From assembly GCA_003171335.1 (NCBI GenBank), contig PMYD01000025.1:2682-66681 (forward strand): DNA of 64,000 nt. The letters are read 5' to 3'. Below are positions 10,365 through 25,660 of the stretch, piece after piece (position 1 is the first letter of the stretch; every line of letters starts with the position of its first letter). A model generated the notes under the pieces. The model was not told the origin of the DNA and ran no database searches. It was given only the letters and a program-made list of their open reading frames with translations. The DNA comes from Phycisphaerales bacterium (GTDB lineage: Bacteria; Planctomycetota; Phycisphaerae; SM23-33; FEN-1343). Position numbers and translations under genes: made by a program.

Positions 10365-11597
10365 TTAACGGCCCTTCAATCGGTGGTACATCTCCAGCGC
10401 CGCCGGGAAGGGGCCGAGGGCCCGCTCGAGGATGCCCAGCGTATAGGCGATGGTCATGCCGTAATTGGCAACCGGCACGCCCGCCGCACGGCAGCGGAGC
10501 AGGCGCGAGAGCATCTCGCGGCGGTTCCACATGCAGGCACCGCAGTGGATGACGAGTTTGTAGGTCGAGAGGTCATCGGGGAAGTCGTGGCCCTGCACGT
10601 GCGTGAAGTCCATGGTGCCGCCGACATATTGCGTGAGCCAGCGCGGGATCTTCACGCGGCCGATGTCATCACCGATGGGGTGGTGGCTGCACGCCTCGGC
10701 CACCAGGATGCGGTCGCCGGGGCGGAGCTGCTCGATGGCCAGCGCACCCTCGACGAACACGTTCAAATCGCCCTTGGCGCGGGCGAAGACGATGGAGAAC
10801 GAGGTCAGCGGAATATCCTTGGGCGTGTCGCCGGCCACCTTGAGAAAACCCTGGGAATCGGTCACGACCAGGGCGGGGGGGCGCTTGAGCCGGTCCAGGG
10901 CATCGCGCAGCTCGCGCTCCTTGACGACCAGGCAGTACGCATCCACATCCAGCACATCGCGGATGGCCTGCACCTGCGGCAGGATGAGCCGGCCCTTGGG
11001 GGCCTCCAGGTCGATGGGCACGACCAGCATGACCAGCTCGCCCGCGCGCACGAGGTCGCCGATGATGGCCGGGGCGTTGATGAAATCCTCCGGCGCGGCC
11101 TTGATGAGCGCCTCGCGCAGGTCCAGGATGCCCTCGCCCTTGGAGGCGACGGTGTGGACGATGGGAATCTTCCTGCCCTTGAGGTCCTTCAGGAGCGCCG
11201 CATCGGGCTTTCCCAGGTCGGACTTGTTGAACACGACGATGGCCGGGGTCTTTCGCTCCGCCAGCTCGGCCAGGATGGCCTGTTCAAACGGACCCCACTC
11301 GCCGGCGGCCGTGACGAGGATGCCGACATCCGTGCGGTCGAACACCTGCCGCGTGCGCTTGACCCGCAGCTCGCCCAGCACGCCCACATCGTCGATGCCG
11401 GCGGTGTCGATGAACAGCACCGGGCCGATGGGCAGCAGCTCCATGGGCTTTTCCACCGGGTCGGTGGTCGTGCCGGCGATCTCCGAGACGATCGACACCG
11501 CCTGGCGGGTCATGGCGTTCAAGAGCGAGCTCTTGCCGACATTCCGCCGGCCGAAGATGCCGATGTGCAGACGAAAACCTTTGGGAGTACTTCTCAT
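10365..11597 (-). CDS. hydF: [FeFe]-hydrogenase maturation GTPase HydF
   Basis: N-terminal GTPase P-loop GIFGRRNVGKSSLLNA. C-terminal HydF cluster-binding motifs ..EACSHHPIGDD.. and ..IHCGACMWNRRE.. (CxH...HCxxC). The track's start 11603 is TTG; the ATG two codons in (complement of 11595-11597, MRSTPKGF...) is more likely. Confidence 0.85.
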   Translation of the reverse strand: MRSTPKGFRLHIGIFGRRNVGKSSLLNAMTRQAVSIVSEIAGTTTDPVEKPMELLPIGPVLFIDTAGIDDVGVLGELRVKRTRQVFDRTDVGILVTAAGEWGPFEQAILAELAERKTPAIVVFNKSDLGKPDAALLKDLKGRKIPIVHTVASKGEGILDLREALIKAAPEDFINAPAIIGDLVRAGELVMLVVPIDLEAPKGRLILPQVQAIRDVLDVDAYCLVVKERELRDALDRLKRPPALVVTDSQGFLKVAGDTPKDIPLTSFSIVFARAKGDLNVFVEGALAIEQLRPGDRILVAEACSHHPIGDDIGRVKIPRWLTQYVGGTMDFTHVQGHDFPDDLSTYKLVIHCGACMWNRREMLSRLLRCRAAGVPVANYGMTIAYTLGILERALGPFPAALEMYHRLKGR

Positions 11598-11603
11598 GTT
11601 CAA

Positions 11604-11784: not shown

Positions 11785-13176
11785 TCAAGACCCCAGCCGG
11801 GTTACGTTTTCCGGACTGATCAGCTTATCAAATTCCTCGCCGGTCAAGATGCCTTGCTCGATGACCACCTCGCGCACGCTGCGGCCGCTGCGGCCGGCAT
11901 CGAGGGCGATTTGCTGGGCGGCGGGGTAGCCGATTCTCTCGACCAGGGCGGTTACAGCCGCCGTGGCGGAGCGGACCTGGGCGCTGCAGCGGTCGCGGTC
12001 GGCCTCGATGCCCTCAACGCACAGCCGGCGGAAGATGGAGCAGGCGGCGGTGAGGAGCTGGAGGCTTTCGAGCAGGCAGTCGGCGATGAGGGGCACGAAG
12101 GCGTTGAGTTCCAGCGAGCCCAGACTGGCGGCCTGGGCGATGGCCTGGTCGTTGGCCATGACGCGGATGGCCGCCTGCGTGACCGCCTCGGGGATGACCG
12201 GGTTGACCTTGCCGGGCATGATGGATGAACCCGCCTGGCGCGCGGGCAGGCGAATCTCCCCGAGGCCGGCCTGCGGACCGGAAGAGAGCCACCGCAGATC
12301 CGTGGAAACTTTTACGAGGCTGGTCGCCAGGGCTTTCAAAATTCCGCTGACCTCGACGAACGCATCCACATTCTGCGTGGCCTCGACGAGATTCTCCGCC
12401 CGCGCCAGACCCAGGCCGGTGATATCGCGCAGATGCTCCACGGCGCGGAAGATGAACTGCCGCGGGGCGCCCAGCCCTGTGCCGATGGCTGTACCGCCCA
12501 GGTTCACCACGCGCAGCCGCTCTTCGCACTTGTACACCCGCCAGCGGTCGCGGCTGAAGGCCTCGGCATAGGCGGACATCTCGCGGCCCAGCGTGGTCAA
12601 GACGGCATCCTGCATCTGCGTGCGGCCGACTTTGACCACATCGGCCAGGGCCTTCTCCTGAACCTGGAAGGCCTCGAGCAGGGCGGTGATCTCGCGTTCC
12701 AGGTCGCGCAGCATGCGGATGGCCGCGACTTTGAGCGCTGTGGGGTACGTGTCGTTGGTGGACTGGTGCAGGTTCAGGTCATCCAGCGGGCTGATGGCCT
12801 CGTAATCGCCGAGCTTGCGGCCGAGAATCTGCAGCGCGCGATTGGCCAGCACCTCGTTCACGTTCATATTGGTCGATGTGCCGGCCCCGCCCTGGAGGGC
12901 ATCGACGCGGATATGCTCATCCAGCAAGCCCTCGGCCATCTCCGCGCACGCCTGCTCAATGGCGATGCTCTTGGCATCGTCCCACTTGCCCAGCTCGTGA
13001 TTCGTCCGCGCGCACGCCAGCTTCACCGCGCCAAAGGCCCGGATGAGCTGAGGATGTATGGGTCTTCCGCTGAGAGGAAAATTTTCCAGGGCGCGTTCGG
13101 TATAAATGCCGTGGAGTGCGCCGGCGGGAACCTCGCGCTCGCCGAGGAGGTCTTTTTCTGTGCGGAAGTCAGCCAC
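11785..13176 (-). CDS. aspartate ammonia-lyase-like class II lyase (aspartase/fumarase superfamily), sitting between hydG and hydF
   Basis: Motifs TEKDLLGEREVPA, QGGAGTSTNMNVNEVLAN, HQSTNDTYPTA, GRTQMQDAVLTTLG, and signature GSSIMPGKVNPVIPE (the aspartase-like KVNPV(I/V)PE rather than fumarase KVNPTQCE). The track start 13212 is TTG inside a heptamer repeat; the GTG at complement 13174-13176 gives a canonical N-terminal length. Confidence 0.8.
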   Translation of the reverse strand: MADFRTEKDLLGEREVPAGALHGIYTERALENFPLSGRPIHPQLIRAFGAVKLACARTNHELGKWDDAKSIAIEQACAEMAEGLLDEHIRVDALQGGAGTSTNMNVNEVLANRALQILGRKLGDYEAISPLDDLNLHQSTNDTYPTALKVAAIRMLRDLEREITALLEAFQVQEKALADVVKVGRTQMQDAVLTTLGREMSAYAEAFSRDRWRVYKCEERLRVVNLGGTAIGTGLGAPRQFIFRAVEHLRDITGLGLARAENLVEATQNVDAFVEVSGILKALATSLVKVSTDLRWLSSGPQAGLGEIRLPARQAGSSIMPGKVNPVIPEAVTQAAIRVMANDQAIAQAASLGSLELNAFVPLIADCLLESLQLLTAACSIFRRLCVEGIEADRDRCSAQVRSATAAVTALVERIGYPAAQQIALDAGRSGRSVREVVIEQGILTGEEFDKLISPENVTRLGS

Positions 13177-13191
13177 AGTCGGGGACTCCAA

Positions 13192-13500
13192 ATTCCAAAT
13201 TCCAAATCCCAAATCCCAAACAACGGTTCGACCGCCCTGAGCGGCTCACCGCCGAAGGGGCTCCAAATCCCAAATTCCAAAGGGGAGCAAACATCCCGGT
13301 GCCACGGCTGCGTTGTTTGCAGCCGTGCGCTGTGTGAGTCGGTAAACGAGAGGTTCCTTGGCTTCCGCAGGACCTCTGGCAGCGCTGCCAGGTCTTGGCG
13401 CACGGCTGCAGAAGGCGCAGCCGTGGCACCAGGGACGTTTTGTTCCCATTTGGAATTTGGTGCTTGGGATTTGTTTGGGATTTGGAATTTGGGATTTGGG
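13192..13500. repeat. composite palindromic element: (CCAAATT/CCAAATC)n heptamer arms flanking an inverted pair of GTGCCACGGCTG..CAGCCGTGCGCT hairpins
   Basis: Left arm 13192-13225 and 13262-13280. Hairpins 13298-13332 and 13398-13430. Right arm 13442-13500 (GGAATTTGG..GGGATTTGGGATTTC). Lies between hydG stop and the aspA-like start. Confidence 0.8.
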
Positions 13501-13506
13501 ATTTCT

Positions 13507-14913
13507 TCACAGGTAGAGGTCCCTTTCCTGCGTCTCCCGAATCCGGCGCATTCTCTCTACAAGCTGGGTTTTGCCGGGATCCTCGGGCATCTTCTCAAGC
13601 TCGGCCGCGACCAAACGCTCGCCGGCCGTCCGCGTGGCGGGGGAGGCGTAATCGACGAGATACTCCTCCAGCGTGGTCAGCGCGTTGGGCGTGCACAGCC
13701 GCTGGATGAAGCCGGGGATGGCGAACTCCATGAAATGCTCGCCCGTGCGGCCCAGGCGGTAGCAGGAGGTGCAGAAGCTGGGGATGTAGCCATCATCCAG
13801 CAGCTCGCGCATCACGCGGTCGAGCGAGCGGACATCGCCCAGCTCGAACTGCTCGCGCTCCATCACCTGGGCATCGCCCGCCTCGGTGTAGCCGCCGATC
13901 TCGATGCGGCTGCCGGCGTCGATCTGGGAGACCCCAAAGGCCATCACCTCGCGCCGCAGCGCCGCCGGCTCGCGGGCGGTGAGGATCAGCCCGGTATAGG
14001 GGACGGATAACCGCAGGATGGCGATCAGCCGCTTGAACTGCTCATCATCGACGGCGTAGCGGCTGTCCAGGTCCGTGCCGGCGGCGGGGCGCAGGCGCGG
14101 GAAGCTGATCGTGTGCGGGCCGACGCCGTGGCGGTGCTGGAGGTACAGGGCGTGGCTGACCAGGCCGAGCACCTCGAAGCGCCAGTCGGCCAGGCCGAAA
14201 AGCGCGCCGATGCCCACATCGTCGCAGCCGGCATCCATGGCGCGGCTCAAGGCATCCAGCCGCCAGAGATAGTCGCCCTTGCGCGTGCCCGCCGGGTGCC
14301 ACTGGGCGTAGGCGCCGTGGTGGTAGGTCTCCATGAAGATCTGGTACGTGCCGATGCCGGCGGCTTTGACGAGGCGGTAGCCCTCGACATCCAGAGGGGC
14401 GGCGTTGATGTTCACGCGGCGGATCTCGCCGTGGCCGAGGCGCACCTCGTACACCTGCTTCACGCAGTCGGCGATGTAGGCGGCGTCGTACCGCGGGTGC
14501 TCGCCAAAGACCAGGATCGTCCGCTTGTGGCCCACGCGGACCATCGCCTCGACCTGCCGGCGGAGCTCCTCGGGACTCAGCGTGCGGCGGACCGAGGCGC
14601 GATTGGAGCAGCGGAAGCCGCAGTAGCCGCAGTCGTTGACGCAGTCGTTGCCGATGTAGAGCGGGGCAAAGAGCACGATGCGATTGCCGTACACATCGCG
14701 CTTGAGTTGCCTGGCGGCGGCGTAGATCTCCTCGATCAACTCCCGCTGCTCCGCGCGGAGCAGCACCGCTGTCTCCTCGACGGCCAGCGGCTGCTTCTCC
14801 AGGCTCTTGGCGATGATCTCGCGGACTTGGTCTGCCGCGGGGGCCTTGCCGGCCAACAGGCCCGACAGGTGGGCGTCGTCGATGAAATCGCTCGCCCGCT
14901 CATTCATTTTCAT
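13507..14913 (-). CDS. hydG: [FeFe]-hydrogenase maturase HydG (radical SAM tyrosine lyase)
   Basis: Radical SAM motif CVNDCGYCGF (CxxxCxxC). C-terminal HydG-specific CTSC-x22-C (..SFCTSCYRLGRTGEHFMEFAIPGFIQRLCTPNA..). ThiH-like overall. Start ATG at the complement of 14911-14913 (MKMNERASDF), or the next ATG at 14905-14907. Confidence 0.85.
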   Translation of the reverse strand: MKMNERASDFIDDAHLSGLLAGKAPAADQVREIIAKSLEKQPLAVEETAVLLRAEQRELIEEIYAAARQLKRDVYGNRIVLFAPLYIGNDCVNDCGYCGFRCSNRASVRRTLSPEELRRQVEAMVRVGHKRTILVFGEHPRYDAAYIADCVKQVYEVRLGHGEIRRVNINAAPLDVEGYRLVKAAGIGTYQIFMETYHHGAYAQWHPAGTRKGDYLWRLDALSRAMDAGCDDVGIGALFGLADWRFEVLGLVSHALYLQHRHGVGPHTISFPRLRPAAGTDLDSRYAVDDEQFKRLIAILRLSVPYTGLILTAREPAALRREVMAFGVSQIDAGSRIEIGGYTEAGDAQVMEREQFELGDVRSLDRVMRELLDDGYIPSFCTSCYRLGRTGEHFMEFAIPGFIQRLCTPNALTTLEEYLVDYASPATRTAGERLVAAELEKMPEDPGKTQLVERMRRIRETQERDLYL

Positions 14914-14976
14914 GCTTGCCAGAACACCCATACTACACCTTGCCTTGCTACACATTCGAAAAGGATCAAGTTCTTA

Positions 14977-15098
14977 GGTGCCACGGCTGTCCGCAGCCGT
15001 GCGCTGTGCGGACAACAGGGCAACCGGTTCGCTGGCTTCCAGCGGACCTTTCCGCGTTCTGGTCATTCCAGCGCACGGCTGCGGACAGCCGTGGCACC
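14977..15098. repeat. inverted pair of GGTGCCACGGCTGTCCGCAGCCGTGCGCT hairpins separated by ~65 bp
   Basis: First hairpin 14977-15006, second (inverted copy) 15070-15098. The stop of the REC-HK gene (15063) falls between them, so the second hairpin encodes that protein's last ~11 residues. A near-identical pair occurs at 42736..42860. Confidence 0.85.
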
Positions 15099-16238
15099 GG
15101 GGACTAGACCGGGGACCAGACTCTTGCCCAACGTCACCGTAAACGTGGTGCCCACGTCCGCCTGGCTGGTGGCGGCCACATCGCCGTCGTACAGGGCGGC
15201 GAGTTTCTTCACGATGGACAGGCCCAGGCCGCTGCCGACGATCCGCCGCGTCTTGTCGTTGCGGATGCGGCCGAATTCGGTGAACAGCTTGCCGATTTCC
15301 TCGGCCGACATGCCGATACCCGTGTCGGCCACGGCCAAGGTGACGGCCGCCGCCGACTGGCCGATCTGGACATCCACGCGGCCGTCGGGGCGGTTGTACT
15401 TGATCGCGTTGGAGATCAGGTTGTTCAGGATGATCTCCAGCTCCTGCCGGTCGGCCGTCATCACGGCCCCAGAGCCGGCCAGAGACACCGTCACGCCGGC
15501 CTCGCTGGCTTGGCCGGCGAAACTCTCGACGACCTCCGCCGCCACGGCCGCCACATCCAGCTCGACCAGCTCGCGTTTCATCTGGCCCGACTCGATCCGA
15601 GTCAGGTCCAGCAGGTCCTGGATGAGCTTGCGCATGGCGGTCAAACGGAACAGCGAGCGATCGAGCATCTGGTCGTACGTGGCTTGGTCGCTACCCGCCT
15701 GGCGGTGCAGAACGATCCGCAGGTAGCCCTCGATGGCGCCGATGGGGGCCTTGAGCTCGTGGGCCAGCACGGAAAGAAACTGGAAGCGCACCTGACGCTT
15801 CTCCTGGGCCAGCCGGCGGGCCTCGCGCTGGAGCAGCAGGTGCTTGGCCGCCTTGCGCACCGCGCCTTTGAGTTCATCGGGCGTGAAGGGTTTGGCAAGA
15901 AAGTCGTACGCGCCGCGCTTCGTGGCGGCCACGGCCGTGTCGAGCGAGGCGTAGGCGGTGATCATCACCGTCAGCACGTCCTGCTCGCCATCGGCCAGCT
16001 TACCCAGCACGTCCAAACCGCTCATGCCCGGCAGCTTGTGGTCCAGCAGCAGGATGTCAGGGGCCTGGGACGCGATCGACTCGAGCGCCTGCTCGCCGGT
16101 GGCCGCCTCGGCGACTTCAAAGTGCACGTCCCCGTTGATTTCGCGCAAGCGGACGGTGAAATCGCGCAGCGCCCGCTTAACGCCTTGGCGCATGCCAGGC
16201 TCATCGTCGACCACGAGGACTTGAAGGGGGCTGTTCAT
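15063..16238 (-). CDS. hybrid two-component protein: N-terminal receiver (REC) domain fused to HisKA/HATPase histidine kinase
   Basis: Verified ATG (complement of 16236-16238): MNSPLQVLVVDDEPGMRQGVKRAL... REC features: DD pair, ..LLLDHKLPGMSG.., K in ..FLAKPF... HisKA H-box ..LAHELKAPIGAIEGY... HATPase ..DTGIGMS.., ..GSGLGLSIVKK... Confidence 0.75.
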   Translation of the reverse strand: MNSPLQVLVVDDEPGMRQGVKRALRDFTVRLREINGDVHFEVAEAATGEQALESIASQAPDILLLDHKLPGMSGLDVLGKLADGEQDVLTVMITAYASLDTAVAATKRGAYDFLAKPFTPDELKGAVRKAAKHLLLQREARRLAQEKRQVRFQFLSVLAHELKAPIGAIEGYLRIVLHRQAGSDQATYDQMLDRSLFRLTAMRKLIQDLLDLTRIESGQMKRELVELDVAAVAAEVVESFAGQASEAGVTVSLAGSGAVMTADRQELEIILNNLISNAIKYNRPDGRVDVQIGQSAAAVTLAVADTGIGMSAEEIGKLFTEFGRIRNDKTRRIVGSGLGLSIVKKLAALYDGDVAATSQADVGTTFTVTLGKSLVPGLVPGATAVRSRALE

Positions 16239-16260
16239 AGTGAGTGCCTCTGTTCTTTTC

Positions 16261-16397
16261 GATTTCAAATTTCAAATTTCAACTTTGGTGGCACAGGCTT
16301 TCCAGCCTGTGGATTCTGGCCGTCACAGGCTGGAAAGCCTGTGCCACCACTCCCGCTGTTTCCGGCAGTTAAATTTGAAATTTGAAATTTGAAATCC
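16261..16397. repeat. palindromic element: (TTTCAAA)n heptamer arms flanking two inverted GGTGGCACAGGCT-TTCC-AGCCTGTGG hairpins
   Basis: Left arm GATTTCAAATTTCAAATTTCAACTTTGG (16261-16286). Hairpins 16287-16312 and 16324-16350. Right arm AGTTAAATTTGAAATTTGAAATTTGAAATCC (16367-16397). Lies between the HydS-HK stop and the REC-HK start. Confidence 0.85.
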
Positions 16398-16398
16398 C

Positions 16399-18405
16399 TC
16401 ATTCTTTTCCTTCCCTGCGTGGCAGCGTAATGGCGAAAGTCGTTCCCGTCGGCCCGGCGGCCTTGTCGGCGTTGGAGGTGACCTGGATGTCGCCGCGATG
16501 CATCTTCACCACGCCATACGCCACCGCCAGCCCCAGGCCGGTGCCCACGCCGATCTGCTTGGTCGTGAAGAACGGCTCGAAGATCTTCGTCAGGTTTTCC
16601 TTGGGAATACCCACGCCGGTATCGCTGACGGCCAGCGTGACTTTATCCTCATCGCCGCCGGCGCGGAGGGTCAACGTGCCGCCGGCCTCCATGGCTGCCA
16701 CGGCGTTGGTCAGCAGGTTGGTGAGCACCTGGATCATCTGGTCGGCGTCGAGGTCCGCCTCATCGTCATCTTCGCTCAGGTCCACGTGCGTTTCCAGGCG
16801 AATGGAGTCTGGAATATTCACCGAGCGCAGCGCCCGCTGAATAAGCTGGCGCAGGCTGACCGGCTGGAGCAGCACCTTGTTCTGCCGGGCAAAGTGCAGC
16901 AGACCGGAGACGATGCGCTTGCAGCGGTCGGCCTGCTCGGTGATCACGCTCATGTCCTGGCGCAGTTGCTCATTGCCGGCGTGCTCTTCCAGCAGCAGGT
17001 GCGCGTACATCAGCACGATGCCCAGCGGGTTATTCACCTCATGCGCGATGCCCGCGGCGAGCTGGCCCATGCTGGCCAGCTTCTCCGACTGCATCAGCGC
17101 CTCCTGGGCGCTGGCAAGTTCCTTATGCGACTCGGCCAACTGCGTGACGGTGGTGTGGAGCTGGTCGATCGTGTACGGCAGGCACATCTCCGTCTCGGCC
17201 AGGCCCTTGAAGATGGCCACGGCGTGCTCGCGGCAGGTGTCGTAGCCGCAGGCGCCGCAATTCAGCTCATCGGCGGCGGTCTGCTTGCCGATGCGCGCCA
17301 GGATCTGCCGGACCTCCTCTTCAAACGGCACGCTGATATGCTGGTCCTGCGCGGTGTAAGTGCGAGACAGGTCCAGGTCGGCCAGGCTCTCCATGTCGCG
17401 CTGCCAGCGGGCCTGGTCGAAATGGCGCAGCCGCTGGCGGACGTACTCGGCCACGCGCGCCCGGCGGAAGAAGACCGGGGTCTCGGGGGAGATGCCCGGG
17501 CCAGTGATGCAGCCCTTGCAGGCTAAGAGCTCCAGCAGCCTCGCGTCCAGGTCGCCGGTCTCGAATTCCTTGATCGCATCCACAAAATCCGTGCGGCCGT
17601 CGGCGGCGACGACGTGGCCTTCGAGCAGATCCTCGTGGATGTCGGCCGCCTGCAGCAGGCCGCGGCTGATGGAAAACAGCGCCCCAAGGCCCGCGTGCGG
17701 CGCATCAAAATCATCCTGCGCCGCCGGCTTAGGGACGATGCCCGTCTGCTGAAACATCGCCCGCAGCTCGGGAAATGTCAGCGCGGCATCCACCTCGCCG
17801 GTGAGGTGTGGGTTATCCACCTCGCCCTTTTTGGCCACGCAGGGTCCGATGAACACCACGCGCAGCTTGTCATGCCGGCCGCGGCGCAGCGCGCGGGCGA
17901 TGGCCACCATGGGCGAGACGATCGGCGCCAGGGCGTCCACCAGGTCGGGGTGATATTTTTCCACGAACGCCACGACCGCCGGGCAGCTTGTGGCGATGTA
18001 CCGCCGGCCGGCCGAGGCTTCCAGCAGCTTGCGGTAGCGGTCGGCCACCAGGTCGGCCCCGAAGCCCACCTCATGCACGGCCGCGAACCCCAGCTCGCGA
18101 ATCATGCCCACCAACTGCCGCCAGGAGCACTCGGTGAACTCCGCGGGAAAGCTGGGCGCCAGCACGGCGACCACGGGCTCACCCCCCGCCAGCAGCGTGC
18201 GGACGTGAACGGTGGAGTCCAGGACGACCTTGGCCTTCTGGCTGCACACGCGGACGCAGTTGCCGCAGCCGATGCAGCGTTCCGCCAGCACCTCGGCCTG
18301 GCCCTTGCCGATGCGGATGGCCTTGGCCGGGCACTCCCGCACGCAGGTGTAGCACACCCGGCAGCGCTCTTTGGCGGTCTGGACGAGATGGGTGGCGGAG
18401 GTCAT
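16399..18405 (-). CDS. sensory [FeFe]-hydrogenase-like protein (HydS-type H-domain) fused to a histidine kinase
   Basis: Verified ATG (complement of 18403-18405): MTSATHLVQTAKE... Two ferredoxin [4Fe-4S] motifs: CRVCYTCVRECP and CIGCGNCVRVC. Degenerate H-cluster motifs: ATSCPAV (L1 with a single Cys), GPCVAKKGE (L2, Gly in place of Met), ELLACKGCITGPG (L3, Leu in place of Met). Extra C-terminal NCGACGYDTCREHAVAIFKGLAETEMC (Cx2Cx4Cx16C). Then HisKA H-box ..GIAHEVNNPLG.. and HATPase ..DTGVGIP.., ..GTGLGLAVAYG... Confidence 0.75.
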   Translation of the reverse strand: MTSATHLVQTAKERCRVCYTCVRECPAKAIRIGKGQAEVLAERCIGCGNCVRVCSQKAKVVLDSTVHVRTLLAGGEPVVAVLAPSFPAEFTECSWRQLVGMIRELGFAAVHEVGFGADLVADRYRKLLEASAGRRYIATSCPAVVAFVEKYHPDLVDALAPIVSPMVAIARALRRGRHDKLRVVFIGPCVAKKGEVDNPHLTGEVDAALTFPELRAMFQQTGIVPKPAAQDDFDAPHAGLGALFSISRGLLQAADIHEDLLEGHVVAADGRTDFVDAIKEFETGDLDARLLELLACKGCITGPGISPETPVFFRRARVAEYVRQRLRHFDQARWQRDMESLADLDLSRTYTAQDQHISVPFEEEVRQILARIGKQTAADELNCGACGYDTCREHAVAIFKGLAETEMCLPYTIDQLHTTVTQLAESHKELASAQEALMQSEKLASMGQLAAGIAHEVNNPLGIVLMYAHLLLEEHAGNEQLRQDMSVITEQADRCKRIVSGLLHFARQNKVLLQPVSLRQLIQRALRSVNIPDSIRLETHVDLSEDDDEADLDADQMIQVLTNLLTNAVAAMEAGGTLTLRAGGDEDKVTLAVSDTGVGIPKENLTKIFEPFFTTKQIGVGTGLGLAVAYGVVKMHRGDIQVTSNADKAAGPTGTTFAITLPRREGKE

Positions 18406-18429
18406 GACAACCTCGGGCGTATTGCTGAA

Positions 18430-18551
18430 GGAATTGCGAATTGCAAATTGCAAATTGCAAATTGGGGAACTCCGAACCTCCCGCCGCTGTGGGCAGTGAG
18501 TGGCGATCCGGTGTCCCTGAATTGGCAATTTGCAATTCGCAATTGGCAATC
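18430..18551. repeat. palindromic element: (AATTGCA)n left arm and inverted (TGCAATT/TGGCAATT) right arm flanking an ~55 bp GC-rich core
   Basis: GGAATTGCGAATTGCAAATTGCAAATTGCAAATTGG ... GAATTGGCAATTTGCAATTCGCAATTGGCAATC. Sits immediately upstream of the HydS-HK start and downstream of the CheY gene stop. Confidence 0.8.
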
Positions 18552-18555
18552 TCTT

Positions 18556-18972
18556 CTAGCTGTCGTTTGGCGCGCAGGCCTTGTCGCCCAGCAGCCGGGC
18601 GACCTCCGCGCGGATCTGCTCAGCGCGGACGGGTTTATCGAGGATCAGGTCGGCCTTGACCCAGCTCTTGGCGTCTTCATCGTTGGGCACGAACGACAGG
18701 CCCGTGGCGGCGGCGACGGAGGTCAGCAGGATGACCGGCACATCCCCGTGCACGCGCTTGAGGTGGTAGGCCAGCACGAAGCCGCTGTCCATCTGCTCCA
18801 TCATCAGGTCCAGGATGGCCAGGTCGGGCTTTTGGCCTAAGAGCAGCTCCTCGCCCTGGCGCTGGCTGTGGCCGGCCTGCACCTCGTAGCCGTCGGCCTG
18901 GAGCACCAAGGTGAGTTGGGAAACGATGTCTTCGTCATCATCCACAATCAAGATTCTGGGCTTGCTGTTCAT
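18556..18972 (-). CDS. single-domain CheY-like response regulator (receiver only)
   Basis: Verified ATG (complement of 18970-18972): MNSKPRILIVDDDEDIV.. REC hallmarks ..DLAILDLMM.. and ..LLTSV... No output domain. Confidence 0.75.
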   Translation of the reverse strand: MNSKPRILIVDDDEDIVSQLTLVLQADGYEVQAGHSQRQGEELLLGQKPDLAILDLMMEQMDSGFVLAYHLKRVHGDVPVILLTSVAAATGLSFVPNDEDAKSWVKADLILDKPVRAEQIRAEVARLLGDKACAPNDS

Positions 18973-18992: not shown

Positions 18993-19115
18993 GATTGCAA
19001 ATTGCCAATTGCAAATTGCCAATTAAAAACTCTTCCGCAGGAAGTGCCGCTTGATCGGCGCGGCGCCTCGCCGCAGCTCTTCAATTTGCAATTTGCAATT
19101 GGCAATTGGCAATCC
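18993..19115. repeat. palindromic element with (AATTGCA/AATTGCC) heptamer arms, related to 18430..18551
   Basis: GATTGCAAATTGCCAATTGCAAATTGCCAATT ... CAATTTGCAATTTGCAATTGGCAATTGGCAATCC. Fills the hydA-stop / CheY-start spacer. Confidence 0.8.
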
Positions 19116-20837
19116 TTACAGGGGAACTTCCCGCTTATGGTAGTGCGTGTGCAACAGGTGGTGGCTCTTCTCGCCCAGGGGCTTGCCCAGGAACTCGTCG
19201 TACAGCCGCGTGATCCAGGGGTTGGCGTGACTGACGCGGCGCGGCTCATCGCGGTCGATCTTGTACAGGGCCTGCATGCGCGCCCGCACCGACTCGAGGT
19301 CGGCGCCGATGGGCTGGCCGCCGCCGTTGATGCAGCCGCCGGGGCAGGTCATGATCTCGATGAACTGGAGGTCTTTGCGCCCGGCCCGCAACTGGTCCAA
19401 GAGCTGGCGGGCGTTGCCCAGGCCGCTGGCGACGGCGGCGCCGACGTCCAGCGTGCCGATGGTGGTGCGAAGCTCCTTGATGCCCTTCATGCCGCGCAGC
19501 GGCTGGATCTTCAAATCGCCCATCTCCTGGCCGGTGATCAGGTAGTACGCCGTGCGGACGGCCGCCTCCATGACGCCGCCGGAGGCGCCGAAAATCTTGC
19601 CGGCGGTAGTGCGCTCGCCGAAGGGCGTATCGGCCGCCTCGGCCTCCAGGGCCGCCAGGTTCACGCCGAACATCCGCAGCAACTGGCCCAGCTCGCGGGT
19701 GGTCAGCACGTAGTCCACATCGGGGACGTGGTTGGGCTGCATCTCCGGCCGCGCGCACTCGAACTTCTTGGCCGTGCAGGGCATGATCGACACGCTCACG
19801 ATATTGCCCGGCTCGATGTTCTCGCGCTGGGCGAAGAAGCTCTTGATGATCGCCCCCATCATCTGCTGGGGGCTCTTGCACGTGGAGAGGTTGGGGATGA
19901 ACTCCGGGTAGAACTGCTCCACGAATTTGATCCAGCCGGGCGAGCAACTGGTCATCATGGGCAGCACGCCGCCGGTGGTGACGCGATGCACCAGCTCGCT
20001 GGCCTCTTCCATGATGGTCAGATCGGCGGCAAACGAGGTATCAAAAACGCGGTCAAAGCCCACGCGGCGCAGGGCGGCCACCATCTTGCCGTCCACGTCC
20101 GTGCCGGGCTTTAAGCCGACTTCCTCGGCCAGGCTCACGGAGACCGCCGGGGCATGCTGGGCGATGACCAGCTTGGTCGGGTCGGCCAGGGCCGCCACCA
20201 CGGCGTCGAGGCTGGAGCGCTCGGACAGCGCGCCCGTCGGGCAGACCAGGATGCACTGCCCGCAGTTGATGCAACTGGAGAGGTTGAGCCCGGCGTTAAA
20301 CGCCGTGCCCACGAACGCCCGGCTGCCGCGGGCGATGAAATCCACGGCCGAGACGGTCTGGTATTCCTCGCACATGCGGACGCACCGGCCGCACAGGATG
20401 CACTTGCTCGGGTCGCGCAGGATGGAGGGGCTGGAGACATCCAGCTCACGTTTGCTCTTGGCGCCGCGATACAGCCGCTGGCGCACGCCCAGGTCCATCG
20501 CCAGGTGTTGCAGTTCGCACTTGCCGCCGCGCGGGCAGTACAGGCAGTCGTCGGGGTGGTTGCTCAGGAGCAGTTCCACGATGGTCCGCCGGGCCTCCAG
20601 CACGCGCGGGGTGCGGGTGCGGATCTTCAGCCCTTCGCTCACCGGGCAGGAGCAGGCGGTGACCAGGTTGCCCGTGCCTTCCACCTCGACCACGCACAGC
20701 CGGCAGGCGCCGCTGGGCGCCAGCCCGTCCATGTGGCACAGCGTGGGCACGTGAATGCCCTCGCGCCGCAGCGCCAGCAGAATCGTCTCGCCCGGCTTGG
20801 CCGCAATCTCGCGGCCGTCCGCTAGAAAAGTAGTCAT
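19116..20837 (-). CDS. hydA: [FeFe]-hydrogenase catalytic subunit HydA (M3-type, CpI/bifurcating-like), with an unusual L1 motif
   Basis: Verified ATG (complement of 20835-20837, GAGGAT SD). N-terminal 2Fe-2S ferredoxin-like domain. His-ligated cluster motif HPDDCLYCPRGGKC. Two 4Fe-4S motifs CILCGRCVRMC and CINCGQCILVCP. H-cluster motifs MMTSCSPGW (L1, normally TSCCPxW), MPCTAKKFE (L2), EIMTCPGGCINGGGQP (L3). Confidence 0.9.
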   Translation of the reverse strand: MTTFLADGREIAAKPGETILLALRREGIHVPTLCHMDGLAPSGACRLCVVEVEGTGNLVTACSCPVSEGLKIRTRTPRVLEARRTIVELLLSNHPDDCLYCPRGGKCELQHLAMDLGVRQRLYRGAKSKRELDVSSPSILRDPSKCILCGRCVRMCEEYQTVSAVDFIARGSRAFVGTAFNAGLNLSSCINCGQCILVCPTGALSERSSLDAVVAALADPTKLVIAQHAPAVSVSLAEEVGLKPGTDVDGKMVAALRRVGFDRVFDTSFAADLTIMEEASELVHRVTTGGVLPMMTSCSPGWIKFVEQFYPEFIPNLSTCKSPQQMMGAIIKSFFAQRENIEPGNIVSVSIMPCTAKKFECARPEMQPNHVPDVDYVLTTRELGQLLRMFGVNLAALEAEAADTPFGERTTAGKIFGASGGVMEAAVRTAYYLITGQEMGDLKIQPLRGMKGIKELRTTIGTLDVGAAVASGLGNARQLLDQLRAGRKDLQFIEIMTCPGGCINGGGQPIGADLESVRARMQALYKIDRDEPRRVSHANPWITRLYDEFLGKPLGEKSHHLLHTHYHKREVPL

Positions 20838-20852
20838 GCCATATCCTCGTTA

Positions 20853-20975
20853 CCGTGGCACGGGCGTCTCGCCCGTGAGTCGCACGGGCATCTTGCCCGT
20901 GATCCGGCCGTTTCTTCTCAGTTTCCACGGGCGAGACGCCCGTGGCACTCATGGGCGGGACGCCCATGCTACTCT
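20853..20975. repeat. cluster of four CACGGGCG-NNNN-GCCCGTG family hairpins in the hydB-hydA intergenic spacer
   Basis: CACGGGCGTCTCGCCCGTG, CACGGGCATCTTGCCCGTG, CACGGGCGAGACGCCCGTGGCAC, CATGGGCGGGACGCCCATG, all read directly. A second cluster of the same family is at 38676..38795. Confidence 0.85.
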
Positions 20976-23900
20976 TAATCCGGTTGCGTGAACTCCAGGT
21001 CGCAGCGCAGGCAGCGGCGGGCCTCCTTGACGGCATCCGCCTCGCTGATACACAGCTCGACCTCGGCGAAGGTGCACTTGCGCTGGCCCACGGGCAGCTC
21101 GGGGCACTTGACGCGCTCGACGATTGTCTCCGACTCCTCATCGTCGCCGCCGCCCGCCACGGGCGCCACGTACACCCCCGGCACGATGGCCTTGGGCAGC
21201 ACGCGCATGGCCTTGCCGCGGACGAACCGGTCGATCATGGCCGCCGCTTGCTTGCCGGTGCCCACCGCCGCAATGACGGTGGCCGGCCCGGTCACGGCGT
21301 CGCCGCCGGCGAAGATGCCCGTGCGACTGGTCTGGAAGCTCTCGCCGTTGGTCGCCACCGAGCCCCAGCGCGTAAGCGTCAATTGTTCGAGACCCTCGGT
21401 CTCGGGCTCCTCGCTGATGGCCACGACCAGCGTGTCCAGCTCCAGGTCGAATTCCGAGCCGGCGATCGGCACGGGCCGTTGCCTTCCGGAGGCATCGCGC
21501 TCGCCCAGCTTGTTGCGCTGCAGGCGCAGGCCGGTGAGCTTGCCATCTTTCGTGTGCACGGCCAGCGGGGCGACCAGCTCTTCAAGCTTGACGCCCTCTT
21601 GCAGCCCGGCCTCGACCTCTTCGTGGTAAGCCGGCATCTCCTCGCGCGTGCGGCGGTACAGCACCGTGACGCTGGTGACGCCTTTTTGCCGCAGGGCCAC
21701 GCGGGCGGCATCCATGGCGGAGTTGCCGCCGCCGATCACGCCCACCCGCCCGTGCGCCAGCTCCTGCCCGTGCAGGTTATGGGCCTTGAGGAAGGTCATG
21801 CTCGGGATGACGCCGCGGGCATCCTCGCCGGCTAGATCAAGCTTCTTGGACTTATGAGCGCCCGTGGCCACATAGACCGCGCTAAAACCCTGGGCCAGCA
21901 GGTCGTCCAGGCTGAAATCGCGGCCCAGTGCCGTGTTGTAGCGGATCTCGACGTTGGGATTGGTCAGCGCATCGATCTCCCGCCGCAACAGATCGCGCGG
22001 CAGCCGGTACGCCGGGATGGCGCCCACCAGCATGCCGCCGGGCTTGGCCTCGCGCTCAAAGACGGTCACGCGATGGCCCATCAGCGACAGGCAGTTGGCG
22101 GCCGTGAGGCCCGATGGCCCCGCGCCGATGACGGCGATCTTCGCCGCATTGGCCGCCGCCGGCGCCACCGCGGGCGTACCGACGCCGGGGCTGACGTGGT
22201 CCACGACGAACCGCTTGAGCGTACGCACGGCCACCGACTCACCGCCGGTTGAGCCGGCGCGGCAGGCGTGCTCGCACGGGTGATGGCACACGCGGGCGCA
22301 GGCCGAGGGGAACGGGTTACTCTGCCGGATCACCCGGTAGGCCTCCTCGTATTCGCCGCGGCCGATGTGGGCCACGTACCGCCACACTTCCGTGCCGGCG
22401 GGGCAGGCGTTCTGGCAGGGCGCGCCCACCAGGCTCTTGCACGCCCCGGCGGGGCAGCGGCGCTCGAAGACATGCGCCTCGTATTCCGCGCGGAACCATT
22501 TCAGCGTGCTCAGCACCGGGTTGGCGGCGGTCTGACCTAAGCCGCACAGGCTGGTGGCCTTGATCATCTCGCCCAGCCGCTCCAGGTGCATGATGCCCTG
22601 CACCCGCAGCAGGCTGTCGAAGGGGCTCTCCTGGCGCGGGCTGCGCGTCAACGCCTGGAGGATTTCCAGCATGCGCTTGGTGCCTTCGCGGCAGGGAATG
22701 CACTTGCCGCAGCTCTCCGACTGGATGAACTCCATGAAGAACTTGGCGAAATCGACCATGCAGGTCGCCTGATCAACCACCACCAGGCCCCCCGAACCCA
22801 TGATGGTCCCAAACTTCTTGAGCGCCTCGTAATCGGTCGGAATATCCAGCTCTTTTTCCGGCACGCAGCCGCCGGAGGGCCCGCCGATCTGCACGGCTTT
22901 GCACGCCTTGTTGTTGGGAATGCCGCCGCCGATATCAAACACCACCTGCCGCAGCGTGGTGCCCATGGGCACCTCCACCAGGCCGGTGCGGCGGACCATG
23001 CCCGAGAGGGCGAACACCTTGGTGCCCTTGGAGCTGGCCGTGCCCATGGCGGCGTACCACTGCGGGCCAATGTCAAGAATAAGGGGCAGATTCGCCAGCG
23101 TCTCCACGTTGTTGATGACCGTGGGCTTGCCGAACAGGCCCTTGACCGCCGGGTAGGGCGGCCGCGGCCGCGGCATGCCGCGCCGGCCTTCGATGCTGTG
23201 GATGAGCGCCGTTTCCTCGCCGCACACGAACGCGCCGGCGCCCTGCTTGATGACGATCTCCAGGGAGAAGCCGCTGTCCAGCACGTTCTCGCCGATCAGC
23301 CGGTACTGCCGCGCCTGGGCCATCGCCTGCTGAAGGCGGCGGATGGCCACGGGGTACTCGGCGCGGATGTAGATGTACGCCTTGGACGCGCCGATGGCGT
23401 AGGCCGCGATGAGCATGCCTTCCAGCAGCCGGTGCGGATCGCTCTCGCCCACGGCCCGGTCCATGAACGCGCCGGGGTCGCCCTCGTCGGCGTTGCAGAT
23501 GAGATATTTCTGGTTCGCCTGGGAGGCGCGGGCGAATTTCCACTTCTTGCCAGTGGGGAACCCGCCGCCGCCGCGGCCGCGCAGGCCGCTGGCTTCCACC
23601 TGGTCGCAGACTTCCTCGGGCGTCATCTTGCCCAGCACCTTGGCCACGGCCGAGTAGCCGCCCCAGGCGATGTATTCATCGATGCTTCCCGGGTCCAACA
23701 GGCCGCTGGTGGCCAGCACCACGCGCCGCTGGCGGATGAGGAACGGGTGCTCGTCGAGATAGCGCACCTGGTCCCAGGGCTTTAGCAAGAGCCCTTCCTG
23801 CCGGAACTGGCCCAGCGCCGCGCCCTCGGCGACCTTGGCATCGACCAGCACCGCCTTGAGCACGGCCTCGACCTTGTCGGCCGTGGCATTTCCAAAGCAG

Positions 23901-24259
23901 ATGCGCGTGCGGCCGGGCATCTGCACATCGAGCAGGGGCTCTTCCGAGCACAGGCCGATGCAGCCGACCTCGATCACCTCGGCATCGAGATTGCCCTTGG
24001 CGATGTACTCGCGCACGGCGGCGAGCGTTTTGCCCGCCCCAGCGCCCAGGCCGCACGTGCCGGTGCCGATGAAGATCACCGGCTTGGCCACATCCTGGCG
24101 GCGCAGGGCCGACAGCCGCCCGGCCAGCACATCGGCCCCCGCGCTCTTGGCGGCGGCCAGCGGGCCGGCGGGAATCCAGTCCAAGAGCTCGGGCGAGACC
24201 GGCCGAGCGCCCAGCCAGCAACGATCAAAAGCCACGGCAGCGGTATTAGCATCCGGCAT
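20975..24259 (-). CDS. hydB: hydrogenase NADH-dehydrogenase-like subunit HydB: NuoF (51 kDa, FMN/NAD-binding) fused to a C-terminal GltD-like FAD/NAD(P) oxidoreductase domain
   Basis: Verified ATG (complement of 24257-24259). NuoF hallmarks ..GGGGFPTGKKW.., ..LICNADEGDPGAF... Cys-rich Fe-S motifs. Then a GltD-like region: ..CQNACPAG.., ..KIAVIGAGPSGLTAA.., ..GRVGVIGGGNSAMD... Confidence 0.85.
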   Translation of the reverse strand: MPDANTAAVAFDRCWLGARPVSPELLDWIPAGPLAAAKSAGADVLAGRLSALRRQDVAKPVIFIGTGTCGLGAGAGKTLAAVREYIAKGNLDAEVIEVGCIGLCSEEPLLDVQMPGRTRICFGNATADKVEAVLKAVLVDAKVAEGAALGQFRQEGLLLKPWDQVRYLDEHPFLIRQRRVVLATSGLLDPGSIDEYIAWGGYSAVAKVLGKMTPEEVCDQVEASGLRGRGGGGFPTGKKWKFARASQANQKYLICNADEGDPGAFMDRAVGESDPHRLLEGMLIAAYAIGASKAYIYIRAEYPVAIRRLQQAMAQARQYRLIGENVLDSGFSLEIVIKQGAGAFVCGEETALIHSIEGRRGMPRPRPPYPAVKGLFGKPTVINNVETLANLPLILDIGPQWYAAMGTASSKGTKVFALSGMVRRTGLVEVPMGTTLRQVVFDIGGGIPNNKACKAVQIGGPSGGCVPEKELDIPTDYEALKKFGTIMGSGGLVVVDQATCMVDFAKFFMEFIQSESCGKCIPCREGTKRMLEILQALTRSPRQESPFDSLLRVQGIMHLERLGEMIKATSLCGLGQTAANPVLSTLKWFRAEYEAHVFERRCPAGACKSLVGAPCQNACPAGTEVWRYVAHIGRGEYEEAYRVIRQSNPFPSACARVCHHPCEHACRAGSTGGESVAVRTLKRFVVDHVSPGVGTPAVAPAAANAAKIAVIGAGPSGLTAANCLSLMGHRVTVFEREAKPGGMLVGAIPAYRLPRDLLRREIDALTNPNVEIRYNTALGRDFSLDDLLAQGFSAVYVATGAHKSKKLDLAGEDARGVIPSMTFLKAHNLHGQELAHGRVGVIGGGNSAMDAARVALRQKGVTSVTVLYRRTREEMPAYHEEVEAGLQEGVKLEELVAPLAVHTKDGKLTGLRLQRNKLGERDASGRQRPVPIAGSEFDLELDTLVVAISEEPETEGLEQLTLTRWGSVATNGESFQTSRTGIFAGGDAVTGPATVIAAVGTGKQAAAMIDRFVRGKAMRVLPKAIVPGVYVAPVAGGGDDEESETIVERVKCPELPVGQRKCTFAEVELCISEADAVKEARRCLRCDLEFTQPD

Positions 24260-24737
24260 TGGCGTGTTCCTGATGACGGCAGTCCTGGAGAATTCGTGTG
24301 CACTTGCGCGGCGTGACCTTGGCGTAGAACTCGCCGTTGATGTTCACCACCGGCGAGAGGCCGCAGGCGCCCATGCAGGCCACCACCTCGAGCGAGAAGA
24401 GCCCATCCCGGGTCGTCTGACCGGGACTGATCTTCAGCTCCTTCACCACCGCCTCCAGCACCGACAGCGAGCCTTTCACGTGACAGGCCGTGCCGCGGCA
24501 CACCTGCACGTGATACTTGCCCGGCCGCGTGAAGCGGAACTGGTTGTAAAACGTGGCGACGCCATAGATCTTGCTCGTGGGCAAGTTGAGGTGCTTGCCC
24601 ACCCGCATGATGACATCCTTGGAAAGGTACCCGTGCGCGGTCTGGATCTCCTGGAGAATGGGGATGAGCGTCTCACGCCCCGCCCCGGGGTGCCGCGCGA
24701 GAATCGGTTCAATGTCCGGCTCTACCATCGTGGCCAT
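24246..24737 (-). CDS. hydC: hydrogenase NuoE-like [2Fe-2S] thioredoxin-fold subunit HydC
   Basis: MATMVEPDIEPILARHPG.. from ATG (complement of 24735-24737, GGAAGG SD). NuoE motifs ..VQVCRGTACHVKG.. and ..EVVACMGACGLSPVV... Overlaps the hydB start by 14 nt. The ORF-track extension to 25139 is not credible. Confidence 0.8.
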   Translation of the reverse strand: MATMVEPDIEPILARHPGAGRETLIPILQEIQTAHGYLSKDVIMRVGKHLNLPTSKIYGVATFYNQFRFTRPGKYHVQVCRGTACHVKGSLSVLEAVVKELKISPGQTTRDGLFSLEVVACMGACGLSPVVNINGEFYAKVTPRKCTRILQDCRHQEHANAGC

Positions 24738-24815: not shown

Positions 24816-24840
24816 CGGGCACGGCTGGGCCGGTTGGTGG

Positions 24841-24894
24841 CCCAGGCTTTCAGCCTGTGGCCTAAGTTTGGTGGCACAGGCTTTTAGCCTGTGG
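24841..24894. repeat. two REP-like hairpins (CCCAGGCT-TTC-AGCCTGTGG and GGTGGCACAGGCT-TTT-AGCCTGTGG)
   Basis: Read directly. Same family as 7541..7606, 16287..16350 and 52106..52129. Confidence 0.8.
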
Positions 24895-24986
24895 CCGAAC
24901 CTGTTCCGGCTCGCTTCATCATCGGTCGTTCGGCGTTGCAGCTTGTGAACCAGGCAACGCCCCAGCGTTGTTAAATCGCAAACGCT

Positions 24987-25139: not shown

Positions 25140-25660
25140 CTGAGGAATTTCCTCAGTTGGCGTTCCGGCAAGAAGCTTCTCAGATCAGGAATTTCCGATG
25201 TGACTCCAAACGGTTCGGAGTCGCGCTGGGCTCCAACTGGAGAATTTCTCCAGTCGACTCCGACATTGTCGGAGTCGCGCCCCCCTCAGGTCTGGGATTT
25301 CCGGATGCGACTCCAAAAGATTTGGGGTCGGGCGGCCGTCCAAGTGGAGAACTTCTCCAGTCGACTCCGACATTGTCGGAGTCGCGCCCCCGTCACGCCT
25401 GGAATTCCCGGAAGCGACTCCAATCGGTTCGGAGTCGCGCTGGGGTCAACTGTGGTTTTCCGCAGTCAACTCCGAAAATTTCGGAGTTGAGCTGTGTTCC
25501 GGCGGTCATGGCAGCAATCAGTTCATGCAGAGCATGAACTGAATGAAGATCAACTCCGAGAATTCGGATTTGAGTTGGGCCTGGCAGCCAATCAGTTCGT
25601 TACGGGAATGAACTGAAGGGGAGATCGACTCCGGAAATTTCCTGGTTGCGCCCCGCGCTT
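25140..25660. repeat. ~0.5 kb non-coding array of imperfect hairpin-forming repeats
   Basis: Units include CAACTGAGGAATTTCCTCAGTTG; CCAACTGGAGAATTTCTCCAGTCGACTCCGACATTGTCGGAGTCGCGCCCCC (x2); GACTCCAAACGGTTCGGAGTCGCGCTGGG (x2); CAACTCCGAAAATTTCGGAGTTGA; CAGTTCATGCAGAGCATGAACTGA. All read directly. Confidence 0.8.

Follow-up and report, generated by a model that had tools for sequence, protein, structure and literature searches.

A serine at the first [4Fe-4S]H ligand position of a HydABC-type [FeFe]-hydrogenase from a Phycisphaerales bacterium

The strict L1 consensus of group A [FeFe]-hydrogenases is TSCCPxW, in which a proton-relay cysteine is followed directly by a cysteine ligand of the [4Fe-4S] part of the H-cluster ([4Fe-4S]H). 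The catalytic subunit HydA encoded in the 64-kb stretch of DNA analyzed here (the window) departs from this consensus and reads TSCSPGW. This raises the question of which of the two cysteines has been replaced, whether the replacement is genuine, and how an H-cluster could be held in such a protein. The gene, hydA (19116..20837, minus strand), encodes a 573-aa M3-type [FeFe]-hydrogenase catalytic subunit, as judged from Pfam, NCBIfam, PDB, and AlphaFold2 comparisons. From the N- to the C-terminus, the protein comprises a 2Fe-2S domain, a His-ligated 4Fe-4S cluster, two ferredoxin-type 4Fe-4S clusters, the H-domain, and a small-subunit-like end, and its Pfam matches are Fe_hyd_lg_C (3.5e-93), Fe_hyd_SSU, Fer2_4, and NADH-G_4Fe-4S_3. 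Against the NCBIfam model NF040763 (FeFe_hydrog_A6), HydA scores 825.9 bits (curated cutoff, 765), and the match spans profile positions 5-571 of 571. The translation includes ..LPMMTSCSPGWIKFVEQFYPEFIPNLSTCKSPQQ.. and, as a fuller stretch around L1, ..GGVLPMMTSCSPGWIKFVEQFYPEFIPNLSTCKSPQQ...

The first-pass annotation of this DNA had reported TSCSPGW on the reverse strand at about 19930-19960, and we located it at 19932..19952 (minus strand, residues 296-302), where the DNA reads ACC AGT TGC TCG CCC GGC TGG. The back-translated pattern has one match in the window, against 0.00 matches expected by chance (100 shuffles). Cys298 is encoded by TGC (19944..19946, minus strand) and Ser299 by TCG (19941..19943, minus strand). 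The other H-cluster motifs are canonical, as had been proposed: L2, MPCTAKKFE (19758..19784, minus strand, residues 352-360), and L3, EIMTCPGGCINGGGQP (19311..19358, minus strand, residues 494-509), agree with the consensus patterns MPCxxKxxE and ExMxCxxGCxxGGGxP, respectively. The three remaining cluster cysteines are thus present, namely, the [4Fe-4S]H ligands Cys354 and Cys498 and the bridging ligand Cys502, and all three are invariant in a 56-sequence alignment.

To determine which cysteine is replaced, we compared HydA with hydrogenases of solved structure. In a phmmer search against the PDB, the best match was Thermoanaerobacter kivui HydA1 (8a6t_A, E = 3.8e-189), followed by Acetobacterium woodii HydA1 (7q4v_A, 5.8e-176). 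Alignments to CpI, T. kivui HydA1, and A. woodii HydA1 were free of gaps from approximately 90 residues before L1 to approximately 60 residues after it. By alignment, Cys298 is equivalent to the proton-relay cysteine C299 of CpI (C169 of CrHydA1), and this column is cysteine in all 116 aligned H-domains. Ser299 is equivalent to the [4Fe-4S]H ligand C300 of CpI and to Ser301 of A. woodii HydA1, and Cys320 to A321 of CpI. The pathway residues E278, E281, and R285, which lie in MEEASELVHR (19983..20012, minus strand), together with S318 (19884-19886, minus strand) and C298 itself, align without gaps with CpI E279, E282, R286, S319, and C299.

The predicted fold agrees with these alignments. An AlphaFold2 model of HydA built with 56 homologues had a mean pLDDT of 91.3 and a pTM of 0.91, and Foldseek superposed it on 8a6t_A with a TM-score of 0.96 (rmsd 1.5 Å) and on both 7q4w_A and CpI with a TM-score of 0.95, each superposition covering about 572-576 columns and thus the whole length of HydA. 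Neither the alignments to CpI, T. kivui HydA1, and A. woodii HydA1 nor the AlphaFold2 superpositions contained a register shift that would restore a pair of adjacent cysteines. On the aligned sequences, then, the substituted residue is the one at the [4Fe-4S]H ligand position, and the relay cysteine is retained. This is the reading that the first-pass annotation had preferred, and the structure-based comparison with CpI that it had proposed bears it out. Its alternative, a serine at the relay position as in C-to-S variants with slowed proton transfer, was rejected, since Cys298 pairs with CpI C299 in a gap-free alignment.

The first-pass annotation had also held that a serine at the ligand position would be remarkable. 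The published record says otherwise. Kertess et al. 2017 (PMC5855289), in a passage citing Winkler, Esselborn and Happe 2013, give serine at this position in ~20% of analyzed sequences, and TSCSPGW has been noted in hydrogenases of Melainabacteria (Di Rienzi et al. 2013, PMC3787301). Katsyv et al. 2023 (PMC10021017) noted that the A1-cluster ligand Cys299Tk of T. kivui is replaced by Ser301Aw in A. woodii, and described Ser301 as a ligand. In the same study, A. woodii HydABC was an active bifurcating hydrogenase (4.1 U/mg bifurcation) with unchanged FTIR signatures and wild-type-like states, including HoxH and Hhyd. The serine-ligand variant TSCSPGW is therefore already known and conserved, and it has a solved, active representative. 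As group A is known to include this variant naturally, with the solved A. woodii enzyme among its carriers, the motif does not bar HydA from the group. Beyond Katsyv et al. 2023, our literature search turned up no other study of serine as a natural ligand, and the L1 motif goes unmentioned in the papers that we consulted on multimeric hydrogenases and on S. wolfei Hyd1ABC. Related HytA homologues were screened against strict motifs by Poudel 2018.

A. woodii HydA1 (PDB 7Q4V/7Q4W/8A5E) is the closest published parallel at L1. Despite an identity of about 49% and its source in a Firmicute acetogen, it shares with HydA the M3 architecture, the identical stretch TSCSPGWIKF, the serine at the ligand position, and an additional cysteine in SSCKSPQ, and it superposes with a TM-score of 0.95. 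T. kivui HydA1 (PDB 8A6T), the top-scoring solved relative, has the same domain order and HydABC context but carries the canonical TSCCPSW with Cys299Tk as ligand, and reads STARSPQ, with Ala/Arg at the Cys320 column. CpI (PDB 3C8Y, 4XDC) shares the fold, the cluster complement, and the proton pathway residues at about 38% identity; it differs in being monomeric and ferredoxin-dependent and in having TSCCPGW, the C300 ligand, and A321.

The engineered counterpart behaves differently from the natural enzymes. The C115S variant of CrHydA1 (standard C170S) is the identical substitution at the same ligand position, and Kertess et al. 2017 (PMC5855289) found that it lost most of its [4Fe-4S] cluster, did not take up the [2Fe] moiety, and was inactive. 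The designation follows the numbering of the expressed protein, in which C115/C170/C362/C366 correspond by our mapping, with a constant 55-residue offset, to the usual C170/C225/C417/C421. The authors were themselves surprised by this failure, given the natural sequences with serine. Because the engineered CrHydA1 equivalent lost most of the cluster and all activity, serine is not tolerated in every scaffold, in contrast to the natural serine-type enzymes, which are conserved and of which at least one is active.

We then surveyed homologues for TSCSP, as the first-pass annotation had suggested. [TS]SCSPGW was present in all 120 of the nearest database proteins (74-100% identity), and [TS]SCSP[GA]W in 80/80 related loci of species-representative genomes (65-79% identical). 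These loci span about 15 phyla, including Planctomycetota, Acidobacteriota, Myxococcota, Elusimicrobiota, Lentisphaerota, NC10, Latescibacterota, and Hydrogenedentota. Serine is encoded in the related loci by five different codons (TCG 58, TCT 9, TCC 8, TCA 4, AGC 2). This synonymous drift under an unchanged amino acid indicates, at the sequence level, that the serine at the ligand position is under purifying selection. Among 119 representatives at 50% identity with a recognizable L1, 90 were Cys-type and 25 Ser-type; the latter fraction (21%) comes from a similarity-biased sample, the 150 representatives most like the query, and is not an independent estimate of the published ~20%. L2 and L3 were canonical in every one of the 25 Ser-type representatives that extends that far. 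On a neighbor-joining tree, Fitch parsimony counted no fewer than 14 changes between Cys and Ser, whereas shuffles needed 22 on average and never fewer than 17. Being built from identity distances and rooted at the midpoint, the tree is crude and supports only the statement that the Ser-type sequences are not one clean clade. Likewise, the Cys-type T. kivui HydA1 outscores the Ser-type A. woodii HydA1 against the query. Together, these two results suggest that the Cys/Ser state has switched more than once.

The genes around hydA place it in a multisubunit enzyme. Upstream on the same strand lie hydC (24246..24737, minus strand; 163 aa as called in L001), which encodes a NuoE-like thioredoxin-type [2Fe-2S] subunit (2Fe-2S_thioredx, 3.4e-49), and hydB (20975..24259, minus strand), whose 1,094-aa product has a NuoF/HydB flavoprotein core and a C-terminal GltD/NfnB-like FAD-NAD(P)H module. 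A NuoF-like HydB (FMN, NADH_4Fe-4S) and a NuoE-like HydC adjoining hydA are the arrangement of HydABC/Bfu-type hydrogenases, and the HydC-HydB-HydA order is conserved in related loci. Downstream of hydA are genes for a 138-aa single-domain response regulator (18556..18972, minus strand), a histidine kinase that combines a HydS-like sensory [FeFe]-hydrogenase H-domain and FeS domains with HisKA and HATPase domains (16399..18453, minus strand), and a hybrid response-regulator/kinase (15063-16268, minus strand). These are followed by the maturase gene hydG (13507..14955, minus strand; TIGR03955, 489.5 bits, cutoff 312), an aspartate ammonia-lyase gene (11785-13212, minus strand), and hydF, encoding the maturase GTPase (10365..11603, minus strand; TIGR03918, 562.3 bits, cutoff 326). 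The order of this minus-strand cassette, hydC-hydB-hydA-regulator-HydS kinase-hybrid-hydG-lyase-hydF, is kept in most of the 80 loci. No HydE-like radical-SAM ORF was found within the 64-kb window; a HydE gene may lie elsewhere in the genome.

HydB itself is an unusual fusion. Its core (residues about 61-612) matches Complex1_51K (2.4e-48) and aligns with HydB and NfnB proteins in the PDB at E values of about 1e-180 to 1e-195. Residues 613-1087 form a GltD/NfnB-like module (Fer4_20 and Pyr_redox_2), which among solved structures most closely resembles the NADP(H)-binding portions of Stn/Nfn-Bfu A subunits. A. woodii HydB ends in the usual ferredoxin-like B3/B4 domain, the proposed ferredoxin site; this domain is absent here, where the GltD/NfnB-like module begins at about residue 613. 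The GltD-type fusion is common to 65 of 83 loci. NF040763, which HydA matches over its full length, is titled "NADH-dependent [FeFe] hydrogenase, group A6," and many of the closest homologues bear this name; the fused GltD-type module suggests that NADP(H) may be involved as well.

Taken together, HydA is very probably an active catalytic subunit of a group A6 HydABC/Bfu-type hydrogenase with a natural [4Fe-4S]H cluster bound by three cysteines and one serine, like that of A. woodii HydA1. In this arrangement, Cys298 would keep its role as the terminal proton relay to the azadithiolate bridge, and Ser299 would occupy the site that normally belongs to the first cysteine ligating [4Fe-4S]H. With Cys354, Cys498, and Cys502 and the proton pathway residues E278, E281, R285, and S318 all intact, HydA would be expected to be fully active. 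By analogy with the A. woodii enzyme, we infer a bond from the Ser299 Oγ to iron, and enzymatic activity, for HydA. In A. woodii, Fe-O(Ser) ligation is itself assigned by modeling at 3.4 Å rather than from a measured bond; the cryo-EM model of HydABC (7Q4V) was begun from AlphaFold (PMC10021017).

Several other explanations for the serine have to be weighed against this one. One is that the true codon is Cys and that TCG arose by an error in sequencing or assembly or by the decay of a pseudogene, for which the sole ground of suspicion is one non-canonical residue in a canonical motif. We consider this next to impossible. The first-pass annotation had raised sequencing error as a concern, and the data dispel it: two substitutions separate TCG from a Cys codon (TGY), the assemblies of three different JGI metagenomes share the same 30-nt stretch and the exact HydA protein, all 120 closest proteins and 80 genome loci carry serine, and the ORF runs uninterrupted over its full length and retains all the other cluster ligands. 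Another explanation is that a different cysteine compensates. The additional cysteine that the annotation had pointed out in NLSTCKSPQQ is indeed there, as Cys320 (19878..19880, minus strand), and a swap in which it becomes the fourth cluster ligand would fit its co-occurrence with the serine in the window, in A. woodii HydA1, in 119/120 close proteins, and in 79/80 related loci, as well as a modest enrichment in Ser-type enzymes. However, cysteine occupies this column in 51 of 90 Cys-type as well as 20 of 25 Ser-type representatives, the other five Ser-type sequences having alanine, so that Cys320 is neither necessary for the serine nor specific to it; on these counts we rejected the ligand swap as highly improbable. 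In CpI, the residue that corresponds to Cys320 is A321, which lies beside Ser319 of the proton pathway and is not at a ligand position. A scan of all aligned H-domain columns for residues covarying with the serine (19 Ser-type versus 92 Cys-type sequences) gave nothing convincing: the best column was glycine at CpI G302 (16/19 versus 37/92; P = 4e-4 without correction, with phylogeny as a confounder), and the Cys320 column was missing from the top columns.

The main surviving rival to ligation by Ser299 is a re-registration of L1 in which Cys298 ligates [4Fe-4S]H, keeping an all-cysteine cluster, while Ser299, Ser297, or water delivers protons. A neighboring cysteine was proposed as an alternative ligand in the C115A variant of CrHydA1 (Kertess et al. 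2017, PMC5855289), C115S fails in the same protein, and the 3.4 Å A. woodii map cannot tell the two arrangements apart. Against this, L1 has no indel nearby and its flanks are 60-80% identical to those of all-cysteine enzymes, every proton-pathway residue that feeds the relay cysteine is conserved, and the published A. woodii model has Ser301 as the ligand. The A. woodii enzyme moreover shows wild-type-like FTIR states, HoxH and Hhyd included. Variants of the relay cysteine usually lack such states, as is reported, for example, for the CpI C299 variants of Duan et al. 2018. Because the proton pathway to Cys298 is fully conserved and the H-cluster states in A. woodii are normal, we regard re-registration as unlikely, if well ahead of the other rivals. 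It is also conceivable that the serine marks a non-catalytic or sensory hydrogenase-like protein, as L1 deviates in the sensory groups C and D and the operon contains regulatory genes. However, a separate HydS-like sensor kinase with degenerate motifs of its own is encoded two genes downstream, and HydA retains the relay cysteine, L2, L3, every F-cluster, and the complete proton pathway. HydB and HydC electron-transfer partners and the HydG and HydF maturases are encoded alongside, and the Ser-type counterpart in A. woodii is an active enzyme. A non-catalytic or sensory HydA is accordingly very doubtful.

Assuming that selection has fixed the serine across a clade of many phyla, and that it may be more than a neutral substitute, we tentatively consider two ways in which it could matter, although we would not expect either with any confidence. 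An Fe-O(serinate) bond might tune the potential or protonation of [4Fe-4S]H for the NAD(P)H-coupled electron flow of Bfu-type enzymes, or Cys298 might serve double duty, with proton delivery rerouted. If either were true, this clade would offer a naturally occurring setting for the study of a type of coordination that breaks down when engineered into the algal HydA1.

As a discovery, the serine has small value, for its natural occurrence in place of the first [4Fe-4S]H ligand has already been published, with a structure. It has some value for the recognition of such enzymes. TSCCPxW, the textbook form of L1, is too narrow, and filters that require it drop a large and widely distributed clade of HydA proteins, in which nature tolerates a substitution that nevertheless destroys the cluster when engineered into CrHydA1.

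The hydB gene (20975-24259, minus strand) encodes a 1,094-aa fusion in which a GltD/NfnB-like module is attached C-terminally to a NuoF/HydB core; the module comprises a Fer4_20 domain with 2x[4Fe-4S] and an FAD/NAD(P)H portion. Whereas the usual HydB ends in a ferredoxin-like domain carrying the B3 and B4 clusters, the HydB of this window carries the GltD/NfnB-like module in its place. Among solved structures, this module is closest to the regions of the A subunits of Stn and Nfn-Bfu that bind NADP(H) (9bov_A, 8oh5_C, and 9n5u_A). The fusion was detected in 65 of 83 related loci, and the remaining 18 lack it. A text search of the open-access literature returned no account of a HydB-GltD-type fusion adjoining a true HydA. 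Through this module, the hydrogenase complex could be linked to NADP(H).

When cluster representatives at 50% identity were searched with HydA, the best match (P0121) was a 4,122-aa protein containing seven HydA-matching stretches. This protein may be a giant with multiple hydrogenase domains, or it may reflect a mis-assembled or mis-called gene.

Although the genome is 65% GC, each intergenic gap of the operon contains an AT-rich inverted repeat (18425-18556, 18993-19114, and 16261-16396), built from short units of the AATTGC/CAATTG type or AAATTTG. Arms of 26-55 nt, with 78-96% complementarity, flank a 20-84-nt spacer. These repeats, which give rise to spurious N-terminal ORF extensions (LQFAI.N), may form mRNA hairpins or represent a REP-like element. 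Perfect or near-perfect GC-rich palindromes, such as GTGGCACGGGCGTCTCGCCCGTG and TGGTGGCACAGGCTTTCCAGCCTGTG, also lie between genes (14977-15098, 16286-16349, 20855-20948, and 24834-24899); related forms recur in several intergenic gaps, and they look like a dispersed palindromic repeat family. Upstream of hydC, a further repeat region (25188-25499) contains two 107-nt tandem copies that are 83% identical (25188-25401) and a 37-nt sub-unit present four times (25197-25499), each copy with a hairpin (GACTCCnnnnnnnnGGAGTC).

Gene order around hydA is shared with other loci. The aspartate ammonia-lyase gene (11785-13212, minus strand) lies between hydG and hydF, a position kept in 24 related loci. 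A single-domain response regulator (18556-18972, minus strand) is encoded ahead of a HydS-like kinase (16399-18453, minus strand), which combines a sensory [FeFe]-hydrogenase H-domain, an FeS domain (PF04060), and a HisKA/HATPase histidine kinase. Its H-domain motifs read ATSCPAV, with only one Cys, IGPCVAKKGE, and LLACKGCITG. Across the 80 related loci, which span many phyla, this regulator-kinase pair almost always comes after hydA, an arrangement suggesting that the cassette is under H2-responsive regulation.
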